Sequence record: SRR22947727_1819
Direction: 5' to 3' (one strand)
Length of the DNA stretch: 56,631 bases
Below, piece after piece: positions 1,941 to 12,230 of this stretch. Each line of letters opens with the position of its first letter. Position 1 is the stretch's first letter. Below the pieces are notes generated by a model. That model saw only the letters and a program-made list of their open reading frames with translations, had not been told where the DNA came from and ran no database searches. The position numbers and the translations under genes were made by a program.

Positions 1941-2567
1941 TTAAACTAATCCAGTAAAGTAATCTATTGCCTGTTTTTCATTTATTACCTCAGCATATTT
2001 AGCCTGCATGTCAAATAGGTTGGCTTTGTGTGGGTTAGAGTGACGGTCACCGCACGCATCCGAGACTACAAATGTAGTAAATCCATTAGAGCAAGAGTCT
2101 ACACAGCTTGCCCTAACACATCCACTCGTTGTTAATCCCGTTAAAAATACACTGTCCACACCTAACGTACGCAGGGTAGATGCTAGGCTAGTTCCAAAAA
2201 AAGCGCTGGGGTATTGTTTAGTAATGATCAATTCATTTGCCTCTGGTGAAAGGCATTTCATCCACTTCCCTAAATTAGAGCCTTCCTTGAAAACCTCCAA
2301 TGCTTGAATTTTTTCATAAAATTTACCAGCATCAGCCATGCTTGATTGGTAAACAACACGCGTATATATTACAGGCACCAAAGCTTTACGCGCAGCTTCT
2401 CTGACTTTAACAGCGCTCTTCAGAGTATTATCAACATTTGCATATAGTGGGCTCTTTTCATTGAAATAAGCCTCGACAAAATCAATAAGTATAAGGGCAG
2501 GTGATTTACCAAACTTGAGATTAGTATTAAATACCTTTTTATAGTTTTCTATTGCCGATTCTTCCAT
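1941..2567 (-). CDS. isochorismatase/cysteine hydrolase family amidase (maleamate or N-carbamoylsarcosine amidase-like)
   Basis: Catalytic triad motifs LILID(F), ITKQYPSAFFGT, GLTTSGCVRA. Confidence 0.88.
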   Translation of the reverse strand: MEESAIENYKKVFNTNLKFGKSPALILIDFVEAYFNEKSPLYANVDNTLKSAVKVREAARKALVPVIYTRVVYQSSMADAGKFYEKIQALEVFKEGSNLGKWMKCLSPEANELIITKQYPSAFFGTSLASTLRTLGVDSVFLTGLTTSGCVRASCVDSCSNGFTTFVVSDACGDRHSNPHKANLFDMQAKYAEVINEKQAIDYFTGLV

Positions 2568-2584
2568 AAGATCACTTTATTTTT

Positions 2585-2609
2585 CATAAATATGTATACA
2601 AAAATACAT
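2585..2609. promoter_or_regulatory. putative GntR operator in divergent amidase/gntR promoter
   Basis: TGTATACA palindrome at 2593-2600 within CATAAATATGTATACAA; near-identical site at 3349-3365. Confidence 0.6.
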
Positions 2610-2653
2610 TTTTTGGACTAATATGCAAACATTGCTTTTAAAAAGGGTAGCCT

Positions 2654-3328
2654 ATGTCTGGTGCATCGGAGCGCGCATACGAAAAAATTCGTACTCTACT
2701 CATACAGGAACAGTATGCTCCTGGTTCACGTCTGAGCGAAAGTGAATTATCTCAAAAGTGTGGCGTCAGTAGGACTCCTGTTCGTGAAGCATTGCGTCGA
2801 CTGGCATTAGAATATTTTGTTCGTATTGAACCAAATAGAGGGGCTTTCGTAATAGACTGGAGCCGCGAGGATATCATTGATATGTTTGAAATGCGTTCGA
2901 TGATGGAAGGTTTAGCTGCCCGCAAAGCTGCGGAGCGCGCAACACCTAAACAAATACTAGGTTTATCTAAAATTGTAATAGATATTGAAGAAATTGCCAA
3001 TAAAGCAGGCAATGATATGATGAGTTCATTTCTATCTTTAAACCGTGAGTTTCATGAAATAATATTTGCAGCCTCAGGCAGCCCCCGTTTAAAGGAGACT
3101 ATCTCTCGTTTTGTTGAGCAAGCCGTAGTAGTTAGAACTGCTGCTCAATTTACACCTGAGGATGTGATGCGAAGTAATCAGCATCATAAAGAATTAGTGA
3201 ACGCAATTAAAATAAAAAATGGTGTCTTAGCTGAAAGCATAATGCGCGTTCACATACTAGCAGCTAGCAGTCGATACTATGATGGTTATATGCCGGGAGG
3301 TTTAAAAGGTGAAATCAAAACTGGGTAA
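2654..3328 (+). CDS. GntR family transcriptional regulator (FCD domain, FadR/VanR subfamily)
   Basis: wHTH LSESELSQKCGVSRTPVREAL; FCD His motifs NREFHEII, QHHKEL, MRVHI. Confidence 0.92.
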   Translation: MSGASERAYEKIRTLLIQEQYAPGSRLSESELSQKCGVSRTPVREALRRLALEYFVRIEPNRGAFVIDWSREDIIDMFEMRSMMEGLAARKAAERATPKQILGLSKIVIDIEEIANKAGNDMMSSFLSLNREFHEIIFAASGSPRLKETISRFVEQAVVVRTAAQFTPEDVMRSNQHHKELVNAIKIKNGVLAESIMRVHILAASSRYYDGYMPGGLKGEIKTG

Positions 3329-3336
3329 TAATGAAC

Positions 3337-3365
3337 TAGACTTTTACTCATAAATTGTATACAAT
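3337..3365 (+). promoter_or_regulatory. sigma70 promoter with overlapping GntR operator
   Basis: TAGACT(3337-3342)-N17-TACAAT(3360-3365); perfect palindrome ATTGTATACAAT 3354-3365 covers the -10. Confidence 0.65.
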
Positions 3366-3462
3366 AATATAATTAAATCACTACTAGCAAACATGGATAC
3401 TTCTTAATCTATCCAAATTATTTAAAAATTCATCCGTAAAGAGATGAAATTGGGAGAAAAAT

Positions 3463-6063
3463 ATGGCTGGGCATAAATTAGCAAACAAACAAACAAAATC
3501 ATTCAAAATTATAGCGATGTCTACTGCCGCCTTGTCGATGGTCTTATCTACAGCCCCCGCGAATGCTCAATCGAATGAAGCAAGCTTTGAGGATGAAATA
3601 ATAGTTACGGCTCGTCGTAAAGCTGAAAATATTCTTGACGTACCGGGATCTGTGACCGCTTTAACAGGGGCAACCCTTGAAAAAGCTGGCGTAGAAAGAG
3701 TTGAAGATTTTATCGGCCTAACTCCCGGAGTTACATTAGTAAACGCGGCAGAAGCAGGAGATACTCAGGTTAACATACGTGGTATTAATGGAGCAAGAGA
3801 CGCTGAAAACAGCTTCGCTTTCATTATTGATGGCGTTTTATATACCAACCCTGCAGCATTTAATCGTGAATATACAGATCTACAGCAAATTGAAGTTTTT
3901 AAAGGCCCTCAGGGTGCTATTTATGGAAGAAATGCCGCTGCTGGCGCAATCATTGTAACAACAGAAACACCGGGAAATGAAAATTCTGGAAGTTTTACTG
4001 CAAGTTATGCAGAAGATGATACAACGCTAATCAAAGGAAGCATTTCAGGTCCTTTATCGGATAACATGTCCTACAGAATCTCAGGTGATTATCGTACATC
4101 GGACGGATATTACCGCAATAGCTATTTAGGAGACTCTCCTACTATTGATGCGTCTGAAAGTTATAATCTCAATGGTCGACTTGTATACAGTCCTAACGAT
4201 CAACTTACTGTAGACGTTAAGGGAAGATACGGTGAAATAGACGCTAACTCAATCGTTTTTAATGCGAACTTTCATCTACCGACCTTTGCAGACATCACGA
4301 CCGTCACAGCCGCAAACCTTGACGTAAACGAGCATCCTTTTGTTTTCCAACCTAACGTCACATCTGATAACGACCAAACTGCAGTAGAGCTTTCGGCAAA
4401 GTTTGATTATGAAATGGATGGCTCCACGCTTACAGGTTGGGCACTGTATAGTGATATAGAAAACAACCTTGTCGCAGACGGAACATCAGCCGCATTCGGA
4501 TTTTTCAATGCAGACTCGGTATGCCAGCAAAGTGTAACTGATCTTGCGGGTTTCCCACTTCCATCACCAACTTTTTTTGGTGAGATACCAGTTGGTGTAA
4601 TTTTTGCGCCAAACGGTTCTTTTCTAGGGGCATACACTCCTTCCACATGTGATGGAATACAAGAGCAGCTTCGCAATCAATCTGACATTAGTGCTGAATT
4701 GCGCCTAGCATCAAATACTAACGGTCCATTAAGTTGGATGGTTGGTGGCTATTTGTTAGATATTGATAGACAGGTGGGCGTTTCAACAAATCGAGATGGC
4801 GGCGGTGCTGTAAATAGAGGTCTTTACCAATTAAATGGTGATAACCGGACTGTTGCACTCGCATATGATGACTTTGATAGTTCTGTCTATGCAGTGTTTG
4901 GTTCAGCTGATTACGCAATGTCAGATACACTTGAGGCATCTGTAGCCTTAAGATATGATGTTGAGAAACGCGAGGTTTCCAGTCTTGTGCCTACAGGGGC
5001 GCGGCAGAGTTTTATTGATCTTGACTTTAACCCCGCAACAGCTGATCCACTCAATGCTGGACTTTCTCCATTGGTGAACCCCGCTGGTATTATTCCAGAC
5101 AAAGAGGAAACCTTTAAACAATTACAGCCGAAATTTTCACTTACATGGGATGCTGCTGACAACACTACAGTTTATAGTAGTTGGGGGGTTGGCTTTAAAG
5201 CAGGAGGTTTTAATAACTCTGGGAGTGCCGCGACTGTTAATATATTTAACAATGGTTTGATTTCTTCCGTATCTGGCACTAACTTCGCTGCCCAAGTTGG
5301 AAGTGCACTACCTGTTATTTCAGACAACTATAAAAAAGAAAAATCAAGCTCTTTCGAAGCAGGGTTTAAAACCTCGGCTCTAGATGGTCGACTTAAAATG
5401 ACAGCTGCAGGTTATTATACTGATGTCACAGACATGCAATTCTTTGAATTCTTTGTGGGTGGATTTGGACTTTTACGAGTAGTGTCTAATATAGACGAAG
5501 TTGAGATTATGGGTGCTGAGTTTGGAGCGGAGTTATCTGCAACAGATAATTTAAACCTATATTTTGGAGCTAATGTAACTGATAGTGAAATAAAATCTAA
5601 TAGCTCTCGTACAGACACAGTAGGAAATAAGTCTCCCTACACACCCGACTACACTCTCAATTTCGGTGGGGATTTTAGTTACCCGATTACGGATGGAATA
5701 AATTTCTTAGTGAGGGCTGATGCACAAATCATCGGGCCAACATGGTTTCATACTGTACAAGGTGGTGACAGAGCAACTATATTTAATCCGTTATTTGAAA
5801 TAGGAAATCCAGCTGCAGGTTTTGGTCCTGGTGCAGGTTTTCTGGGTACAGGTAACTTCGTTAATTCTCAGAGAGATAGTTATCTGACACTTGACATGCG
5901 AGCAGGTTTGAAAACCGATACTTGGTCAATAACAGCTTTCGCACAAAATTTAACAAATGAAAATATTCTTGAGGAAGTTATTCCTGCTCCAGAGTTTGGG
6001 GGGTCTTTTCTAGCACCAGGAGCACAACAACGCTTTGGTGTCGAAGTAGCATATAATTTTTAA
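3463..6063 (+). CDS. TonB-dependent receptor
   Basis: Signal peptide, TonB box DEIIVTARR, plug motif IEVFKGPQGAIYGRNAAAGAI, C-terminal YNF. Confidence 0.95.
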   Translation: MAGHKLANKQTKSFKIIAMSTAALSMVLSTAPANAQSNEASFEDEIIVTARRKAENILDVPGSVTALTGATLEKAGVERVEDFIGLTPGVTLVNAAEAGDTQVNIRGINGARDAENSFAFIIDGVLYTNPAAFNREYTDLQQIEVFKGPQGAIYGRNAAAGAIIVTTETPGNENSGSFTASYAEDDTTLIKGSISGPLSDNMSYRISGDYRTSDGYYRNSYLGDSPTIDASESYNLNGRLVYSPNDQLTVDVKGRYGEIDANSIVFNANFHLPTFADITTVTAANLDVNEHPFVFQPNVTSDNDQTAVELSAKFDYEMDGSTLTGWALYSDIENNLVADGTSAAFGFFNADSVCQQSVTDLAGFPLPSPTFFGEIPVGVIFAPNGSFLGAYTPSTCDGIQEQLRNQSDISAELRLASNTNGPLSWMVGGYLLDIDRQVGVSTNRDGGGAVNRGLYQLNGDNRTVALAYDDFDSSVYAVFGSADYAMSDTLEASVALRYDVEKREVSSLVPTGARQSFIDLDFNPATADPLNAGLSPLVNPAGIIPDKEETFKQLQPKFSLTWDAADNTTVYSSWGVGFKAGGFNNSGSAATVNIFNNGLISSVSGTNFAAQVGSALPVISDNYKKEKSSSFEAGFKTSALDGRLKMTAAGYYTDVTDMQFFEFFVGGFGLLRVVSNIDEVEIMGAEFGAELSATDNLNLYFGANVTDSEIKSNSSRTDTVGNKSPYTPDYTLNFGGDFSYPITDGINFLVRADAQIIGPTWFHTVQGGDRATIFNPLFEIGNPAAGFGPGAGFLGTGNFVNSQRDSYLTLDMRAGLKTDTWSITAFAQNLTNENILEEVIPAPEFGGSFLAPGAQQRFGVEVAYNF

Positions 6064-6082
6064 ATTGAATTATTGTATTGGG

Positions 6083-6106
6083 TGTTGAGAGCTATCGCTC
6101 TCAACA
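6083..6106 (+). other. intra-operon stem-loop (mRNA stabiliser or partial terminator)
   Basis: TGTTGAGAGC-TATC-GCTCTCAACA, perfect 10-bp stem right after the TBDR stop, no clean U-tract. Confidence 0.65.
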
Positions 6107-6116
6107 AACTTCTTTG

Positions 6117-7037
6117 ATGATTAAAACACAGAATATTGAAATTGTTGATGTAACAGCCCGCGATGGCCTGCAAAATGAATCTGTAATTTTTACGACTGAG
6201 GACAAAATAGATCTCATTAATAGATCGATAGAAACAGGCGTAAAACGCTTAGAGGTTGCAAGTTTTGTACACCCGAAATATGTTCCCCAGATGGCAGACG
6301 CTGAAGCTGTTATCAATAATCTTCCAGAAAAAGATAATTTGACATATATAGGTCTTGCAATGAATGAACGGGGCGTAGATCGGGCGCTCAATACAAAAAT
6401 AGATGAAATAGGCTTAGTGGTTGTTGCAACAGATACATTCGCAAAAAAAAATCAAAACCAAACTCGGGATAGTTCTATTAAGATGGCCTCCTCAATGGTA
6501 AAGAAAATTAAGTCTGAAGGACGTAAGGTAAATGTAACGATAGCCGCTTCTTTTGGCTGCCCATTTGAAGGAGAGGTTGAGATAGGTACTGTTGTTGAGA
6601 TGGCTCAACAAATTGCTTTTTCTAACCCTGATGGAATTTCAATTGCTGATACTATAGGTGTTGGAGATCCTTGGAAAGTTAAAGAACTTTTTTCACAGCT
6701 AAAAAGTGAATTGCCAACTATGCCGCTTCGTGCACACTTTCATAATACTAGAAATACTGGGTTAGCTAATGTATATACTGCAATTGAATGCGGGGTTAAC
6801 AGTATAGATGTTTCCATTGGTGGCATTGGAGGATGTCCTTTTGCTCCATCTGCAACAGGCAATGTACCTTCAGAGGATGTTGTATATATGCTCGGCCGTA
6901 ATGGAATTGACACTGGTTTGTCTTTAAACAAGTTAATTAGCACCTCTCAATGGTTGAGTAAAAAAATGGGTAAAACATTACCAGGCATGGTAAGCCGTGC
7001 AGGTAGTTTTCCTGAAAATTTAAGTCGAGCAATATAA
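6117..7037 (+). CDS. hydroxymethylglutaryl-CoA lyase family (DRE-TIM) enzyme
   Basis: DVTARDGLQNE, HFHNTRNTG, GGIGGCPFAP; start moved to ATG 6117, downstream of the hairpin. Confidence 0.9.
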   Translation: MIKTQNIEIVDVTARDGLQNESVIFTTEDKIDLINRSIETGVKRLEVASFVHPKYVPQMADAEAVINNLPEKDNLTYIGLAMNERGVDRALNTKIDEIGLVVVATDTFAKKNQNQTRDSSIKMASSMVKKIKSEGRKVNVTIAASFGCPFEGEVEIGTVVEMAQQIAFSNPDGISIADTIGVGDPWKVKELFSQLKSELPTMPLRAHFHNTRNTGLANVYTAIECGVNSIDVSIGGIGGCPFAPSATGNVPSEDVVYMLGRNGIDTGLSLNKLISTSQWLSKKMGKTLPGMVSRAGSFPENLSRAI

Positions 7038-7054
7038 TAATATAGGATAGGTTT

Positions 7055-9109
7055 ATGAGTTACAGATTAGGTGTTGATGTTGGAGGAACATTCACGGACC
7101 TCCTATTGTTTGATGATAAAACAGGAGCCTCTCATAAAACTAAAGTGCCTTCTACTCCTGACGACCCTTCGCGCGCAGTTGTTGGTGGCACAAAAGATAT
7201 TTGTAACATCGCTGGAATAGAGCCCAATAAAATTGATTATTTTTTACATGGAACAACTGTCGCAACCAATGCCATGCTTGAAGGTAAAGGAGCCCGTGTT
7301 GGATTGATTGTAACCAAAGGGTATCGTCAAATAATGCAAATTGCGCGATCTCTTGTTCCTGGCGGTCTTGCAGCATGGATTATCTGGCCTAAGCCAGAGC
7401 CACTAGCAGCATTAGAGGATACAATTGAAGTTTCAGGTCGAATGAGTGCTCACGGAAAAGAAATCCGCAAGGTTGATAAAGATCAAGTTGAAAAAGCACT
7501 TAAAAAATTAAAAAAACAAAACCCAGAAGCCATAACAATATGTCTTATGAATTCTTACACAAATGGAAAACACGAAAAACAGGTTGCCCGAATTGCAAAA
7601 AAAATATTCCCTGATTTATCAATTTCTATAAGTCATGAAATACTACCCGAAATGTTTGAATACGAGAGAACGCTAACCACCGTTGCAAACTCCGCAGTAA
7701 GACCAGTTGTTGGAAATTATGTTAGGAATCTTGAAACTGAACTACGTAAAATGGGCATGAGTGGTCAATTGAGTCTTTTGCGTTCAGATGGGGGTCTAAT
7801 GAGTGCCGCAAAGTCGCAGGTCTCTCCTGTTAATTTACTTATGTCTGGACCGGCCGGTGGAGTTACAGGGGCTTTATGGGTAGCAAAGTCAGCTGGGTAC
7901 AAAAACATATTAACCCTTGATGTTGGAGGAACTTCAACTGATGTTGCACTAATTGAAAATTTTGAGCCACGTCTAGTGCGTAATACTTCTGTTGGCGATC
8001 TGGCTGTTAGAGCTTCCTCTTTGGATGTTAAGACAGTAGGTGCTGGTGGAGGCTCAATTGCTCATGTTCCAGAACTAACAGGGGCTCTCAGGGTAGGACC
8101 TGAAAGTGCGGGTGCAGTGCCTGGTCCAGCTTGTTATTCAAAAGGAGGGGATTTACCAACAGTAACTGATGCTAATGTTGTCTTGGGTTACCTTCCAGAA
8201 GAACTTCTAGGCGGAGCATTTGAACTAGACCGTAAAGCAGCAAAAAAAGCAGTTAAAAAGGTAGCAGATGCGTTAGGGTTAGATGTATACACTGCTGCTG
8301 CGGGGATCATAGATATTGTTAACGAAAACATGTTTGGCGCTTTAAGAATGATATCTGTGCAACAAGGCTACGACCCCAGAGATTTTGCCTTAATGGGCTT
8401 CGGAGGGGCTGGATCACTGCACTCAAACGCAGTTGCTAAGCTTATGGGGTCTTGGCCGGTCATAGTACCACGCTCGCCAGGCGTATTATGCGCCGTTGGC
8501 GACGCCACCACGCGTTCAAGAGCCGAGCTTTCTCGATCTCACTCTAAAAAAAGGTCTCAGACTAACTCAGATGAGATAAACAATATACTTAAAGAAATGG
8601 GCGAACAGGTATCAGCTGAGCTTTTAGCTGAAGGTACAAAAAAGAAAGATATTAGCATCTCATTCCAAGCAGATGTTCGTTATCATGGACAGGCATTTGA
8701 AATACCTATGACAGTAAATATAAAAGGTTTTTCAAATTTAGGGCTTGGAAAACTTTGTGATGCTTTTGATGCTGAACATAAAAGAATGTTTACATTTAAT
8801 ATGGACGCAGAACATGAAATTGTAAATCTTCGAGCCGTAGCACTTGGTAAGTCATTGGAATTACCCGCTCAAAAAGTTAAACGGGGGGACGGAAATCCAA
8901 AAGCAGCCAAGATGCGCACAACAGAAATATATATAAATGGTAAAATGAAAAAAGCAGGTGTTTATGACCGCGATAAATTATGTGCAGGTGACAAAATAAA
9001 AGGCCCCGCAATAATTATCGAGATGGACTCAACGGCCTTAGTTCACGCTGATTGTTCAGCAAAAATTGACAAATTCGGTAATATTATCATCAACCCAAGC
9101 AAGAAATAG
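7055..9109 (+). CDS. hydantoinase/oxoprolinase subunit A (ATP-binding)
   Basis: GVDVGGTFTD, HGTTVATNA, SGPAGG, DVGGTSTDV, GAGGGSIA, GPESAGAVPGP. Confidence 0.93.
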   Translation: MSYRLGVDVGGTFTDLLLFDDKTGASHKTKVPSTPDDPSRAVVGGTKDICNIAGIEPNKIDYFLHGTTVATNAMLEGKGARVGLIVTKGYRQIMQIARSLVPGGLAAWIIWPKPEPLAALEDTIEVSGRMSAHGKEIRKVDKDQVEKALKKLKKQNPEAITICLMNSYTNGKHEKQVARIAKKIFPDLSISISHEILPEMFEYERTLTTVANSAVRPVVGNYVRNLETELRKMGMSGQLSLLRSDGGLMSAAKSQVSPVNLLMSGPAGGVTGALWVAKSAGYKNILTLDVGGTSTDVALIENFEPRLVRNTSVGDLAVRASSLDVKTVGAGGGSIAHVPELTGALRVGPESAGAVPGPACYSKGGDLPTVTDANVVLGYLPEELLGGAFELDRKAAKKAVKKVADALGLDVYTAAAGIIDIVNENMFGALRMISVQQGYDPRDFALMGFGGAGSLHSNAVAKLMGSWPVIVPRSPGVLCAVGDATTRSRAELSRSHSKKRSQTNSDEINNILKEMGEQVSAELLAEGTKKKDISISFQADVRYHGQAFEIPMTVNIKGFSNLGLGKLCDAFDAEHKRMFTFNMDAEHEIVNLRAVALGKSLELPAQKVKRGDGNPKAAKMRTTEIYINGKMKKAGVYDRDKLCAGDKIKGPAIIIEMDSTALVHADCSAKIDKFGNIIINPSKK

Positions 9110-9118
9110 GAGAGTAAA

Positions 9119-11023
9119 ATGGCGGCTAATCTCATTGAAACCAATAAAAAGAAACTTCGCTCAGCTAACGTTGATCCTATTACTTTAGACCTAATAGAGA
9201 ATGCAATTCGAAACGCTCGCGTTGAAATGGATGCTACTCTTTTTCGTACAGCCTTGTCCCCAGGGATACGTGAACAAGGAGATGCATTTCCTTTAATTGC
9301 AAACCGAGATGGAAAAATGGTTGTTGGGCAATTTGGATCATTTATTGACGGGTTTTTGAAAACGCATGAAGGAGATATAGAGGAAGGTGATGTAATATTA
9401 CTTAACGACCCTTACTCATGCGAAGGAGCTATAAGCCACAACAATGATCAGCTCGTTATTATGCCAATATACCGAAAGGGAAGAATTATCTCATGGGCTG
9501 CCATGTTTGGTCATATGACTGACATCGGAGGAAAAGTTCCCGGATCTCTCCCCAATGATGCACAATCAATATTTGAGGAAGGCCTAAGAATGCCTCCTGT
9601 TAAATTATATCGAAAAGGGGAGTTTCAAGAAGATATCCTTAAAATTGCTATGCACCAAAGTCGCATGCCAGAATGGTATAAAGCTGATCTCCATGCAATT
9701 GTAGCCGCTTGCAAAGTAGCAGCCTTAAGGGTTGAAGAAATTTGCGAGCGCTTCGGTGATGATATTTACAATTCGGCACTTGATGAATTATTAGCTCGCA
9801 ATCATCGTGCGATGAAACATCTTATAATGACGTCAATAGGAGAGAAGCCGGTTAGCTTTGAGGATTACATTTGTGATGATGGTAATGGCAATGGGCCATT
9901 CAAAATCAAATGCACTATGCACAGAAAAGGTGAAAAGGTCTACCTGGATTTTGATGGTACAGACCCCCAATCAGAATACTCTATTAATTTCTTTCTAAAT
10001 GAAAATATGTTTAAAATGTTCTTTGGTATTTACATGATCATGGTTTTTGACCCACAAGTACTTTTTAATGACGGTTTTTATGATCTTGTAGAAGTTAAAA
10101 TTCCTCAGGGTTCATTATTAAAACCTAACTACCCAGCTGCATTATCCTGTAGAACTCATGCCTTGGGTCGTATTTTTGATATTCTCGGTGCTCTTTTAGG
10201 CCAAAAAACTCCTGATTTCATGTGTGCAGCGGGATTTTCTTCTAGTCCGCATTTAATGTTCTCTGGTTTTGATGAAAACGATGATTGGTTTCAACTTTTT
10301 CAAATCGGATTTGGGGGAATACCAGGTAAACCTTTTGGAGATGGTCCTGATGGTCACTCTTTATGGCCTGGTTTTACCAATGTTCCGAATGAGTTCCTAG
10401 AGCGTTATTTTCCAATGGTAATTGAAACATATGAGTCTCAAATAGACTCTGGAGGAGCAGGTCATTTCCGAGGGGGTAATGGCATTAATATGGTTTATAG
10501 ATTTACCCAAGATGGTCAGATTTCTATTCACGATGACCGTTGGTTCATTCCTCCATGGGGAGTTAATGGGGGCTTACCAGCAGAAAGGTCATTCAAGAAA
10601 CTTGAAAAAGCTAATGGGAAAAAAGTGGTATTAGGCGCAAAGGTAGATCGTATTGATGTGGAAGCAGGAGATCTCTTGCATTATGTAACATGGGGCGGAG
10701 GAGGTTGGGGCGACCCCTTAACCCGCGATCCTGTTCTATTGTCAAAAGAGCTTAAACAAGGCTTAATTTCCAGGAAAGGGGCTAGAGACTATGGCGTAGT
10801 TCTGTCTAGTAGTGGAAAGGTCAATGTCAAAGAGACCAAATCGCTTCGTAAAGAAATGTCAAAAGCACGAGGGAAGATTAAAATCTTCGATTATGGTCCA
10901 GATATAGAAACATTACGTAAAAATTGTCTCAAAGAAACTGGCCTCCCAGCACCTTTACAACCCGTATGGAAAAAGAAAGGTCACAAAAAGGGCTCTAGTA
11001 GAACTAGAGGTGCAGTGACCTAA
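9119..11023 (+). CDS. hydantoinase/oxoprolinase subunit B
   Basis: LLNDPY, SHNND, GHMTDIGGKVPGS, DSGGAG, GGGGWGDP. Confidence 0.93.
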   Translation: MAANLIETNKKKLRSANVDPITLDLIENAIRNARVEMDATLFRTALSPGIREQGDAFPLIANRDGKMVVGQFGSFIDGFLKTHEGDIEEGDVILLNDPYSCEGAISHNNDQLVIMPIYRKGRIISWAAMFGHMTDIGGKVPGSLPNDAQSIFEEGLRMPPVKLYRKGEFQEDILKIAMHQSRMPEWYKADLHAIVAACKVAALRVEEICERFGDDIYNSALDELLARNHRAMKHLIMTSIGEKPVSFEDYICDDGNGNGPFKIKCTMHRKGEKVYLDFDGTDPQSEYSINFFLNENMFKMFFGIYMIMVFDPQVLFNDGFYDLVEVKIPQGSLLKPNYPAALSCRTHALGRIFDILGALLGQKTPDFMCAAGFSSSPHLMFSGFDENDDWFQLFQIGFGGIPGKPFGDGPDGHSLWPGFTNVPNEFLERYFPMVIETYESQIDSGGAGHFRGGNGINMVYRFTQDGQISIHDDRWFIPPWGVNGGLPAERSFKKLEKANGKKVVLGAKVDRIDVEAGDLLHYVTWGGGGWGDPLTRDPVLLSKELKQGLISRKGARDYGVVLSSSGKVNVKETKSLRKEMSKARGKIKIFDYGPDIETLRKNCLKETGLPAPLQPVWKKKGHKKGSSRTRGAVT

Positions 11024-11024
11024 T

Positions 11025-12230
11025 ATGTCTAGACAAACATCTGAACGACAAGGTCCATTAACCGACATTAGGGTAATTGAAATGGGGCAACTTATAGCTG
11101 GTCCATTTTGCGGTCAGTTATTTGCAGATATGGGCGCAGACGTTATTAAAGTTGAACCCCCCGGAAAGGGAGACCCCATGAGAACCTGGGGACGAGAAGG
11201 GTATCCTCTTTGGTGGAAAGTATGCGCACGTAATAAACGCTGTATAACTGCAAATTTACGTGAAAAAGACGGTCAAGATATTATCAAGAAACTTGTAAAA
11301 GAAGCTGATTTTATATTAGAAAACTTTAGACCCGGCACCATGGAAAAATGGGGCTTAAGTTATGAAGACCTTAAAGTTATAAACCCCAGAATCATAATGA
11401 TCCGGGTTTCGGGCTATGGTCAAACGGGTCCATATTCAAAACGTCCCGGCTATGCCTCAGTCGGAGAGGCAATGGGTGGTGTACGCTATCTTATGGGTGA
11501 CCCTGACCGTAAACCTAGTCGTGCGGGTATATCCTTAGGTGATACGCTTGCTGCTACTTACGCCACAGTTGGTGCTTTGGCTGCTTTGCACCATAGAGAG
11601 AAAACTGGAGAAGGGCAGGTTATTGACGCGAGCATATACGAATCCGTGCTTACAGTTATGGAAAGTCTAGTGCCAGAGCATACTATTGAGGGCTTCACGC
11701 GTGAACGGTCAGGTTCGTATCTGCCTGCAATTGCGCCTTCAAATATTTATGATGGCAAAGATGGCATGGTCATTATAGCGGCAAACCAGGACACTATCTT
11801 TGCTCGTTTGTCAAAAGCCATGGATATGCCATCTCTTGCAGACAATCCCCGATACGCCACTCACACCGCGCGTGGTACCCATCAATTAGAGTTGGACGAT
11901 ATTATTCAAAAATGGGCTAATGATAAAACAATAAGCGAAATAGAAGAAATAATGATTAGAAATGCAGTTCCTGTTGGTAAAGTTTATAGAGCTAAAGAGA
12001 TGATTGAAGACCCTCATTTTAAAGCACGCCAATCCTTAATCGATTTACCAAGTGAAAGGTTTGGGTCTATAAAGATGCAAAATGTTTTCCCAAAAATGTC
12101 AAAAACCCAAGGAGAAGTCCGTTGGACTGGCCCAGAAAAACTTGGTTCTCACACAGAAGAGGTTTTAACGGAACTTCTTGACCTGACCTCCGAACAAATA
12201 GAAAAACTTAGAAAGAGTAATATAGTTTAA
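11025..12230 (+). CDS. CaiB/BaiF class III CoA-transferase
   Basis: IAGPFCGQLFADMGADVIKVE, RNKR, ENFRPG, SGYGQTGP, catalytic Asp in SLGDT. Confidence 0.92.
   Translation: MSRQTSERQGPLTDIRVIEMGQLIAGPFCGQLFADMGADVIKVEPPGKGDPMRTWGREGYPLWWKVCARNKRCITANLREKDGQDIIKKLVKEADFILENFRPGTMEKWGLSYEDLKVINPRIIMIRVSGYGQTGPYSKRPGYASVGEAMGGVRYLMGDPDRKPSRAGISLGDTLAATYATVGALAALHHREKTGEGQVIDASIYESVLTVMESLVPEHTIEGFTRERSGSYLPAIAPSNIYDGKDGMVIIAANQDTIFARLSKAMDMPSLADNPRYATHTARGTHQLELDDIIQKWANDKTISEIEEIMIRNAVPVGKVYRAKEMIEDPHFKARQSLIDLPSERFGSIKMQNVFPKMSKTQGEVRWTGPEKLGSHTEEVLTELLDLTSEQIEKLRKSNIV

Follow-up and report, generated by a model that had tools for sequence, protein, structure and literature searches.

A conserved seven-gene cluster from a Hellea-type genome with a possible role in the catabolism of a five-membered cyclic imide or ureide

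The subject of this work is a gene cluster of about 10 kb located at positions 1941–12230 of sequence record SRR22947727_1819, whose whole analysed stretch of 56,631 nucleotides (nt) is referred to here as the window. We propose, giving this reading an even chance, that the cluster is a catabolic regulon inducible by its substrate, and that this substrate is a small cyclic ureide or imide with a five-membered ring that yields a carboxylate. The product of one of its seven genes, the hydantoinase-type subunit HyuB, is 100% identical to that of a Hellea sp. metagenome-assembled genome (MAG; locus L002), and the nearest relative genome (G001) is 1.8 Mb in size and 97% complete. Domains were assigned by Pfam and NCBIfam profile searches (NCBIfam, June 2026) and solved relatives were taken from the PDB (2026). 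An earlier reading of the same DNA, referred to here as the original prediction, had named the seven genes; its positions match the open reading frames (ORFs) exactly and the Pfam and NCBIfam domains agree with its identifications. The genes and associated features are as follows (lengths in amino acids, aa; HMG-CoA, 3-hydroxy-3-methylglutaryl-coenzyme A).

1941–2567, minus strand: isochorismatase-family cysteine amidase, 208 aa (PF00857, 127 bits), divergent from gntR
2593–2600, no strand assigned: operator copy 1, the TGTATACA palindrome, in the 86-nt divergent promoter region between the amidase gene and gntR; the same 8-mer lies 5' of gntR in relatives
2654–3328, plus strand: GntR-family regulator with an FCD effector domain, 224 aa (PF00392 and PF07729)
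3337–3365, plus strand: promoter-like site of the receptor operon, a consensus match only, with a -10 hexamer that overlaps operator copy 2
3356–3363: operator copy 2, TGTATACA, 5' of the receptor gene
3463–6063, plus strand: TonB-dependent outer-membrane receptor, 866 aa (plug and beta-barrel domains)
6083–6106, plus strand: perfect stem-loop (10-bp stem, 4-nt loop) followed by a run rich in T, located 3' of the receptor stop codon and 5' of the lyase start codon
6117–7037, plus strand: HMG-CoA-lyase-type (DRE-TIM) acyl-CoA lyase, 306 aa from ATG 6117 (ORF 6078–7037 from a TTG; PF00682, NF004283)
7055–9109, plus strand: hydantoinase/oxoprolinase A subunit (HyuA), ATP-binding, 684 aa (PF05378, PF01968, PF19278)
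9119–11023, plus strand: hydantoinase/oxoprolinase B subunit (HyuB), metal-binding and hydrolytic, 634 aa (PF02538, 479 bits)
11025–12230, plus strand: class III (CaiB/BaiF/Frc-type) CoA-transferase, 401 aa (PF02515, 409 bits, profile positions 1–366 of 366)

The enzyme genes are tightly packed, with spacers of 17, 9 and 1 nt (lyase–hyuA–hyuB–CoA-transferase) and with the CoA-transferase start 1 nt past the hyuB stop codon. For the lyase, ATG 6117 is likely to be the start rather than TTG 6078, given homology, the hairpin at 6083–6106 and the ATG found there. This start leaves a receptor–lyase spacer of about 53 nt containing the terminator-like stem-loop, which might act as a partial terminator setting the ratio of receptor to enzymes, or else affect mRNA stability, so that the two levels would be uncoupled.

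The 8-mer TGTATACA occurs four times in the window, each time within the cluster (0.98 copies expected; 0 of 100 shuffles reached four). At the two promoters, upstream of the amidase and gntR genes and of the receptor gene, the palindromes read TTGTATACAA and ATGTATACAA. Both are of the TnGT-N-ACnA type expected of FadR/FCD regulators of the GntR family, for which this palindrome is the operator consensus. The other two copies are located in coding regions, at 4182–4189 in the receptor gene and at 8284–8291 in hyuA, and may be auxiliary operators or chance occurrences. The promoter-like site at 3337–3365 matches the consensus, the number of such matches being not above that in shuffled sequence.

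A scan with HyuB returned more than 590 relatives among species-representative genome stretches, and the best 80 were retained as HyuB-seeded loci. Homologues were called by tblastn at 35% identity or more over at least half the length; many contigs were short, and 47 of the 80 loci had full 10-kb flanks. TGTATACA was found no more than 260 nt upstream of a cluster gene in 43 of the 44 loci having a gntR homologue, and 84 of the 90 sites present in the 1.43 Mb of the 80 loci lie within 260 nt 5' of a cluster gene, an arrangement that goes beyond chance. In loci devoid of a gntR homologue, the 8-mer occurs anywhere in only 2 of 36. The retention of an AT-rich palindrome, although many carrier genomes have 60–70% G+C, argues that TGTATACA is a conserved operator. 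The shared operator announced in the original prediction is therefore real at both promoters and conserved in relatives, and this pattern supports the view that the seven genes form a single regulated unit, with the GntR/FCD protein as its presumed repressor. The regulator is the least conserved of the cluster proteins (36–55% identity across these loci); HyuB is the most conserved (66–83% identity in the 79 other loci).

Homologues of hyuA were found in 73 of the 80 loci, of the CoA-transferase gene in 64, of the lyase gene in 59, of the amidase gene in 50, of the receptor gene in 45 and of gntR in 44. When only the 47 loci with full flanks are considered, hyuA, hyuB, CoA-transferase and lyase genes occur together in 37, the amidase gene joins them in 30, and all seven genes are present in 20. 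The five enzyme genes are thus co-conserved with the receptor and GntR genes across orders, as the original prediction required. Gene order and strand vary among the Hellea, Caulobacter, Erythrobacter and Parasphingorhabdus types, which argues for selection on the gene set rather than for an inherited block. Carriers comprise Caulobacterales, Sphingomonadales, Kordiimonas, Iodidimonas and Steroidobacteraceae-type Gammaproteobacteria, the last three having been added by a second scan seeded with the lyase (80 loci, partly overlapping the HyuB set), in which hyuA or hyuB was found near the lyase gene, within the fetched locus, in 41 of 80. A contig filed under a Synechococcus MAG name (L065) holds a complete Erythrobacter-type cluster in the same gene order, with a HyuB 66% identical; it probably stems from a heterotroph associated with the cyanobacterium and was misbinned.

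HyuA contains the ATP-site motifs D8VGGTFTD, D289VGGT and G353AVPGP, corresponding to the ASKHA set DxGGTxTD, DxGGT and GxxPGP, and these match the motif list given for CapA in the available text of PMC8453981. The HyuB tetrad Asp55-His107-Asp110-His132 aligns with Asp41-His99-Asp102-His124 of CapB, named as its metal site in the same text, which gives the first ligand as Asp in lactamases and hydantoinases and as Glu in acetone carboxylase (PMC8453981). The best solved relatives are the fused N-methylhydantoinase 7hk5 (458 bits for HyuA, 215 bits for HyuB), followed by the caprolactamase 6yra. Both subunits fall below the cut-off of 1000 bits of the respective caprolactamase equivalogs NF050156 and NF050157 (539 bits for HyuA, 224 bits for HyuB), and the acetone/acetophenone carboxylase models score 306, 206 and 128 bits against cut-offs of 1250–1500. 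As far as curated models show, HyuAB would therefore belong to no characterised clade, and the original prediction, which had named membership of such a clade as the finding that would count against it, stands on this point.

Since HyuAB belongs to the same superfamily as these carboxylases, and since the models for acetophenone carboxylase give scores of 306 and 128 bits, it could be argued that the pair is an ATP-dependent acetone/acetophenone-type carboxylase yielding a beta-keto or dicarboxylic acid, subsequently activated with CoA and cleaved, with the amidase as a passenger. We consider this hardly probable at all: no gene for the third (gamma) carboxylase subunit was found in or beside the operon, the carboxylase models score below the lactamase models, the first metal ligand is Asp55, as in lactamases and hydantoinases, and not Glu, and, of the 37 full-flank loci with the remaining four enzyme genes, 30 have the amidase gene as well. 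Isochorismatase-like genes are likewise found beside more distantly related HyuAB paralogues in three further genomes, so that HyuAB followed by a cysteine amidase is a recurring two-step unit. In G001, hyuA is present in a single copy.

The solved relatives of the amidase are N-carbamoylsarcosine amidohydrolase 26st (1.4e-42, 149 bits), 3ot4/3uao (6e-35), 4l07 (2.3e-30) and 1nba (1e-21); the top relatives amount to four distinct enzymes over five chains, one enzyme being represented together with its mutant. We take 3uao/3ot4 and 4l07 to be the maleamate amidases NicF and Ami, respectively, the other top relatives being N-carbamoylsarcosine amidohydrolases. The triad Asp29-Lys117-Cys150 is kept, Cys150 aligning with the Cys-to-Ala position of the mutant chain 4l08_B, and the protein lies far below the cut-offs of all of the NCBIfam equivalogs RutB, BiuH, PncA and YcaC. 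N-carbamoylsarcosine and maleamate both have the form HOOC-X-Y-CO-NH2, in which the amide carbon is four atoms from the carboxylate. Opening of a five-membered hydantoin or imide gives products of this kind; from a plain lactam, neither a primary amide nor a carbamoyl group results. Because the relatives of the amidase take such four-atom amide acids, a five-membered imide or ureide is favoured as the substrate, and the lactam option in the original prediction fits the amidase poorly. The siderophore, citrate-imide and glutarimide substrates that it also put forward are speculative candidates.

The lyase scores 305 bits against NF004283, the HMG-CoA lyase subfamily model, above the cut-off of 246, and its best solved relatives are the HMG-CoA lyases 1ydo, 6nds, 2cw6, 2ftp and 1ydn. 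All seven residues aligned to R41, D42, E72, H233, H235, C266 and N275 of human HMGCL (2cw6) are conserved, which covers the catalytic Arg-Asp, Glu, His-x-His, Cys (in the GGCP loop) and Asn. Against the bacterial HMG-CoA lyases it scores 185–225 bits, the lowest value being that for 1ydn from Brucella; the source organisms of these structures, Brucella included, are given in the available text of PMC6689899. It is the sole HMGL-type gene in G001. None of the catalytic residues inspected in HyuA, HyuB, the amidase or the lyase is altered.

For the CoA-transferase, the nearest NCBIfam models are succinate-glutarate (293 bits), succinyl-CoA:mesaconate (248 bits), formyl-CoA (238 bits) and oxalate (235 bits); all of them are dicarboxylate transferases and all score below cut-off. 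Its solved relatives are 4ed9, 10uh and human SUGCT (9br7). The (R)-citramalyl-CoA lyase of Chloroflexus belongs to the HMGL family. A class III citramalate CoA-transferase and a citramalyl-CoA lyase form an established enzyme pair (EC 2.8.3.20 and 4.1.3.46), as described in the available part of PMC8307300. The receptor falls below every NCBIfam cut-off for siderophore, haem and B12 receptors, the best being the TonB-siderophore subfamily at 145 bits against 223.5.

These scores bear on the possibility of a six-membered, glutarimide-type ring, for which imide opening and glutaramate deamidation would yield 3-hydroxy-3-methylglutarate or a close analogue, followed by succinyl-CoA:HMG transfer and cleavage to acetoacetate and acetyl-CoA. 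That the lyase exceeds the HMG-CoA lyase subfamily cut-off with all catalytic residues kept is in its favour, as is the succinate-glutarate model being the best for the CoA-transferase, with the human succinate-hydroxymethylglutarate CoA-transferase among its top solved relatives. We nonetheless find it improbable. The amidase relatives act on amides four, not five, atoms from the carboxylate, and a racemase homologue found in some loci (described below) resembles enzymes for five-membered rings. Its low score against Brucella 1ydn makes the lyase look like a divergent paralogue and not the alphaproteobacterial housekeeping enzyme; no natural HMG-imide is known to us, no search having been aimed at one.

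Additional genes found in the relatives bear on the nature of the ring. In 25 of the 80 HyuB-seeded loci, mostly labelled as genera of Sphingomonadales, a three-gene insert lies between the receptor gene and gntR, consisting of an Asp/Glu/hydantoin-racemase-family gene and two SnoaL-like genes (e.g. Erythrobacter dokdonensis L059, 4442–6071). The best solved relatives of the racemase homologue are allantoin and hydantoin racemases (3qvk at 6e-22; 5lfd; 3.5e-14), and its presence suggests that the ring has a stereocentre whose proton can be exchanged. A maleate isomerase was considered for this gene and rejected, given that its solved relatives are hydantoin and allantoin racemases with no maleate isomerase listed. 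An NTF2-like ORF upstream of the cluster (52–417) was likewise ruled out as a counterpart of the SnoaL-like pair, to which it is unrelated. Both flanks of the cluster in the window consist of unrelated small ORFs, coding for NTF2-like, ABM domain, DUF2141 and bacterial PH domain proteins, so that the cluster is self-contained in this genome, as the original prediction had it. A compositional signal of horizontal transfer was not obtained, the cluster GC of 0.41–0.42 recurring elsewhere in the window.

The racemase homologue is one of several features consistent with classical hydantoin use, in which N-methylhydantoin (from creatinine) or a 5-substituted hydantoin would be opened by HyuAB and decarbamoylated by an amidase resembling N-carbamoylsarcosine amidohydrolase, with a racemase in sphingomonads, to give an amino acid, ammonia and CO2; the CoA-transferase and lyase would then process the side chain of this amino acid, or else a further substrate of a related kind. 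Among solved structures, the top relatives bear the names N-methylhydantoinase (7hk5) and N-carbamoylsarcosine amidohydrolase (26st), the racemase homologue belongs to the hydantoin/allantoin type in 25 of 80 loci, and the hyuABC genes of Pseudomonas sp. NS671 provide an ATP-dependent precedent, according to the available text of PMC8453981. G001 also has two soxB genes over the curated cut-off, so that sarcosine could be used. The original prediction had dismissed creatinine use because no sarcosine oxidase is encoded here, which is true of the window; in view of the two soxB genes this argument against N-methylhydantoin is weak, and a better one is that the CoA-transferase and lyase would be left without a role. 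These two genes are co-conserved and separated from hyuAB by spacers of 1–17 nt, yet have no part in known hydantoin routes. No creatinine deaminase is encoded in the cluster, and the scores of HyuA and HyuB against 7hk5 are those of distant relatives. The soxB cut-off was reached in no control genome, Caulobacter vibrioides included, yet one C. vibrioides strain (L019) has the cluster. Overall, we judge hydantoin use to be unlikely, without being negligible. The presence of two genes for the sarcosine oxidase beta subunit in a 1.8-Mb Hellea-type genome (contigs C3 and C75 of G001) suggests methylated-amine use.

The same racemase homologue, whose best solved relatives are allantoin racemases, could also point to an allantoin-type ureide degraded to glyoxylate, with the lyase and transferase working in the condensing direction (glyoxylate and acetyl-CoA to malyl-CoA, then malate). 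N-carbamoylglycine is the parent structure of allantoate and ureidoglycolate, as it is of N-carbamoylsarcosine; two amidase genes are present in Gammaproteobacterial loci, and profile searches of G001 found no PuuE, AllC or any allantoinase over cut-off. We hold this to be very unlikely. Malate synthase is already encoded in G001, OHCU decarboxylase was not found there and nothing indicates allantoin synthesis of its own. The PuuE-type allantoinase model matches in C. vibrioides, one control genome passing the cut-off, and ureidoglycine/ureidoglycolate enzymes are not encoded in the cluster. The allantoicase profile matched no control genome, which makes the corresponding search of G001 uninformative. 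The allantoinases known to us need no ATP.

In Steroidobacteraceae-type loci, hyuB is immediately followed by another isochorismatase-like gene, which shares about 30% identity with the first. A MoCoBD gene (xanthine dehydrogenase/aldehyde oxidase family, 716–750 aa) follows the second amidase gene in four Gammaproteobacterial loci and directly follows hyuB in three Burkholderiales loci. Examples are L117 (13253–16049) and L018 (11893–15065), beside which no adjoining Fe-S or FAD subunit gene was seen, an unusual arrangement for this family. A LeuCD-like aconitase-family pair is inserted between the CoA-transferase and amidase genes in at least two loci (L009, identical to L133, and L022), and a short-chain dehydrogenase family gene occurs in the fetched flanks of twelve loci. 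Judging by these neighbours, the pathway of some lineages seems to require a step of hydration, isomerisation or redox chemistry for which the Hellea cluster has no gene.

The molybdenum enzyme raises the question of a lactam of oxindole or pyridone type, formed when a molybdenum enzyme hydroxylates an N-heterocycle, in parallel with anaerobic indoleacetate breakdown, where a class III CoA-transferase acts after the ring opener IaaCE. The position of the MoCoBD gene (716–749 aa), after hyuB or after the second amidase gene, would suit such a route. IaaCE itself is a characterised HyuAB-type lactam opener, acting on 2-oxoindoleacetate before CoA activation, according to the available text of PMC8453981. 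Such a lactam is in our estimation quite improbable: the clusters of Hellea, Caulobacter and most sphingomonads have no molybdenum enzyme, the Fe-S or FAD partner subunit was not seen beside the MoCoBD gene, a plain lactam would give the conserved amidase no substrate and no aromatic-ring degradation genes are co-conserved.

Returning to a five-membered cyclic ureide or imide, we propose the following route. The TonB-dependent receptor would scavenge the ring compound, for which substituted succinimides or maleimides and hydantoin-like rings are candidates, and HyuAB would open the ring amide at the cost of ATP. The opened product, whose primary amide (or N-carbamoyl) function would lie four atoms away from its carboxylate, would be hydrolysed by the cysteine amidase, releasing ammonia (and CO2 in the case of a carbamoyl group). 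The class III transferase would then place the resulting C4–C6 (hydroxy)dicarboxylate on CoA, using a donor such as succinyl-CoA, and the HMG-CoA-lyase-type enzyme would split a 3-hydroxyacyl-CoA into acetyl-CoA and a 2-oxo acid or ketone, a cleavage proposed by analogy with malyl-, citramalyl- and HMG-CoA. Repression of the two promoters by the GntR/FCD protein would be exerted at TGTATACA and lifted when the protein binds the substrate or an intermediate. The sequence of ring opening, deamidation, CoA activation and C–C cleavage had been put forward in the original prediction and is still the most economical reading; we infer its step order and substrate, together with the ring size, mode of repression, CoA donor and cleavage products, from the gene content.

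The gene families, the intact residues, the co-conservation and the operator found across orders all speak for such a pathway, as do the relatives of the amidase, the N-methylhydantoinase as best relative of HyuAB, the racemase homologue and the dicarboxylate CoA-transferase models. The second isochorismatase-like gene in Gammaproteobacteria, the recurrent pairing of HyuAB with a cysteine amidase and the Asp first ligand are also consistent with it.

A number of points weigh against this proposal. Hydrolysis of an imide or hydantoin has no chemical need of ATP. A hydratase gene is missing from the Hellea and Caulobacter clusters, and the enzyme would have to be supplied from outside them if the ring were unsaturated (maleimide-type); an imide that already bears a hydroxyl group is not known as an abundant natural product. 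A hydantoin ring would give an amino acid, leaving the CoA-transferase and lyase without an obvious substrate. The lyase may run in either direction in vivo. Pairs of lyase and CoA-transferase genes also occur in lyase-seeded loci with no hyuAB nearby; the neighbours of such pairs were considered as a clue to the acid, and those of the Aquidulcibacter type (a receptor, an SsuA-type sulfonate ABC transporter and RuvAB) were uninformative. Conversely, seven full-flank loci have neither CoA-transferase nor lyase genes, namely six of Burkholderiaceae type, some of which we assign to this family by genus, and one Caulobacteraceae MAG (L033). The HyuB of the Burkholderiaceae loci is 73–76% identical, and an amidase gene is found only in L017. 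Two contexts of hyuAB were seen in Burkholderiales, the first with genes for an AMP-forming CoA ligase, an enoyl-CoA hydratase, an Amidohydro_2 protein and an FAD-linked oxidase, and the second with those for a MoCoBD protein, a Zn-dependent dehydrogenase (Zn-ADH) and a LacI regulator. These contexts suggest that the ring-opening step can feed other downstream chemistry.

The cluster was compared with known systems. The creatinine/N-methylhydantoin branch uses the same two families in the same order, an ATP-dependent A/B pair with a metal tetrad followed by an amidase with an Asp-Lys-Cys triad. However, its enzymes are distant (458, 215 and 149 bits for HyuA, HyuB and the amidase), the present cluster lacks a creatinine deaminase and it adds a class III CoA-transferase, an HMG-CoA-lyase-type enzyme, a TonB-dependent receptor and a GntR regulator. 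The maleamate amidohydrolases of nicotinate and nicotine breakdown (3uao/3ot4 and 4l07) are the second- and third-best relatives of the amidase, with the catalytic Cys aligned, and likewise deamidate the product of an opened N-heterocycle, whereas the dioxygenase, deformylase and maleate isomerase of those routes are not encoded in the present cluster. The carbamoylase HyuC of Pseudomonas sp. NS671 is said to lie outside the isochorismatase family, and this strain reportedly has a racemase gene, hyuE. The hyuABC(E) genes of NS671 resemble the present cluster in that ATP-dependent HyuAB is followed by carbamoyl removal (available text of PMC8453981), and sphingomonad loci add a racemase homologue; unlike the present cluster, NS671 has no CoA-dependent module.

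Lactamases of the CapAB (PDB 6YRA) and OplAB type share the fold, the ATP motifs and the Asp-His-Asp-His site, whereas the present pair falls well short of their cut-offs (539 and 224 bits against 1000) and their lactam product would not be an amidase substrate. The pairs of citramalate CoA-transferase with (R)-citramalyl-CoA lyase and of SUGCT with HMG-CoA lyase similarly combine a class III dicarboxylate transferase with a lyase for 3-hydroxy-3-substituted acyl-CoAs; here, in contrast, all CoA-transferase equivalog models remain far below cut-off. Anaerobic indoleacetate breakdown offers a further parallel, IaaCE catalysing a HyuAB-type ring-amide opening from which the acid enters CoA-dependent metabolism (available text of PMC8453981). 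Mutase and beta-oxidation genes are lacking in the present cluster, which has an amidase and an HMGL-type lyase instead, and a molybdenum enzyme is found only in its beta- and gammaproteobacterial variants. The seven-gene combination was found in no NCBIfam equivalog (June 2026), solved structure (PDB 2026) or paper returned by an open full-text literature search; judged by gene content, all of the parts are known families and the arrangement is new.

The Hellea version of the cluster recurs in near-identical form in 17 public runs from 13 studies with marine or seawater metagenome labels, each run containing 81% or more of the words sampled from the 10-kb stretch; one of these runs has a coded organism name and one may be the source sample. 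Among 401 sampled genomes of the class, 34 gave a HyuB match at E ≤ 1e-200, a figure that over-counts the cluster, since in the three that were opened (G321, G002 and G301) the match lies in a different context. In these three genomes (L171–L176), two HyuAB paralogue pairs are located 15–18 kb apart, each near an isochorismatase-like gene. The neighbours, scanned in G321 only, comprise ABC transporters, an amidase-signature enzyme, a luciferase-like monooxygenase, an Amidohydro_1 protein, a polysaccharide-deacetylase-like protein and a CobW-type GTPase, and from this content the region looks like a separate, also uncharacterised, N-heterocycle catabolic island.

With regard to transcription, there is a weak hint at most. 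In the RNA-labelled runs X8 and X12, coverage of the cluster and its flanks is as flat as in the DNA run of the same study, and DNA carry-over is possible. In X18, an RNA-labelled run from another study, the match consists of short pieces, the listed ones all within 6762–11495, and 21 of 30 bins have depth.

The cluster has been retained in a streamlined genome of 1.8 Mb. That a 10-kb regulon is kept in such a genome indicates that its substrate is probably a significant, unrecognised part of dissolved organic nitrogen and carbon. As a long shot, it could be the missing route for maleimide- or succinimide-type fragments in receptor-rich aquatic bacteria, which may include hematinic acid and methyl-ethyl-maleimide from the destruction of chlorophylls, bilins and haem by light and oxygen. 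In such fragments the imide would be opened with ATP and the product deamidated in the manner of maleamate, transferred to CoA and cut by the DRE-TIM lyase, help from LeuCD-like hydratases being optional. If true, this would mean that one class of dissolved organic nitrogen has a sink of worldwide distribution that had gone unrecognised. Naming the substrate would add a pathway to metabolic maps and give a function to thousands of genes annotated as 'hydantoinase/oxoprolinase family', 'CaiB/BaiF' and 'isochorismatase family'. It would also yield an ATP-dependent ring-opening biocatalyst and a biosensor made of the GntR protein and the TGTATACA operator.

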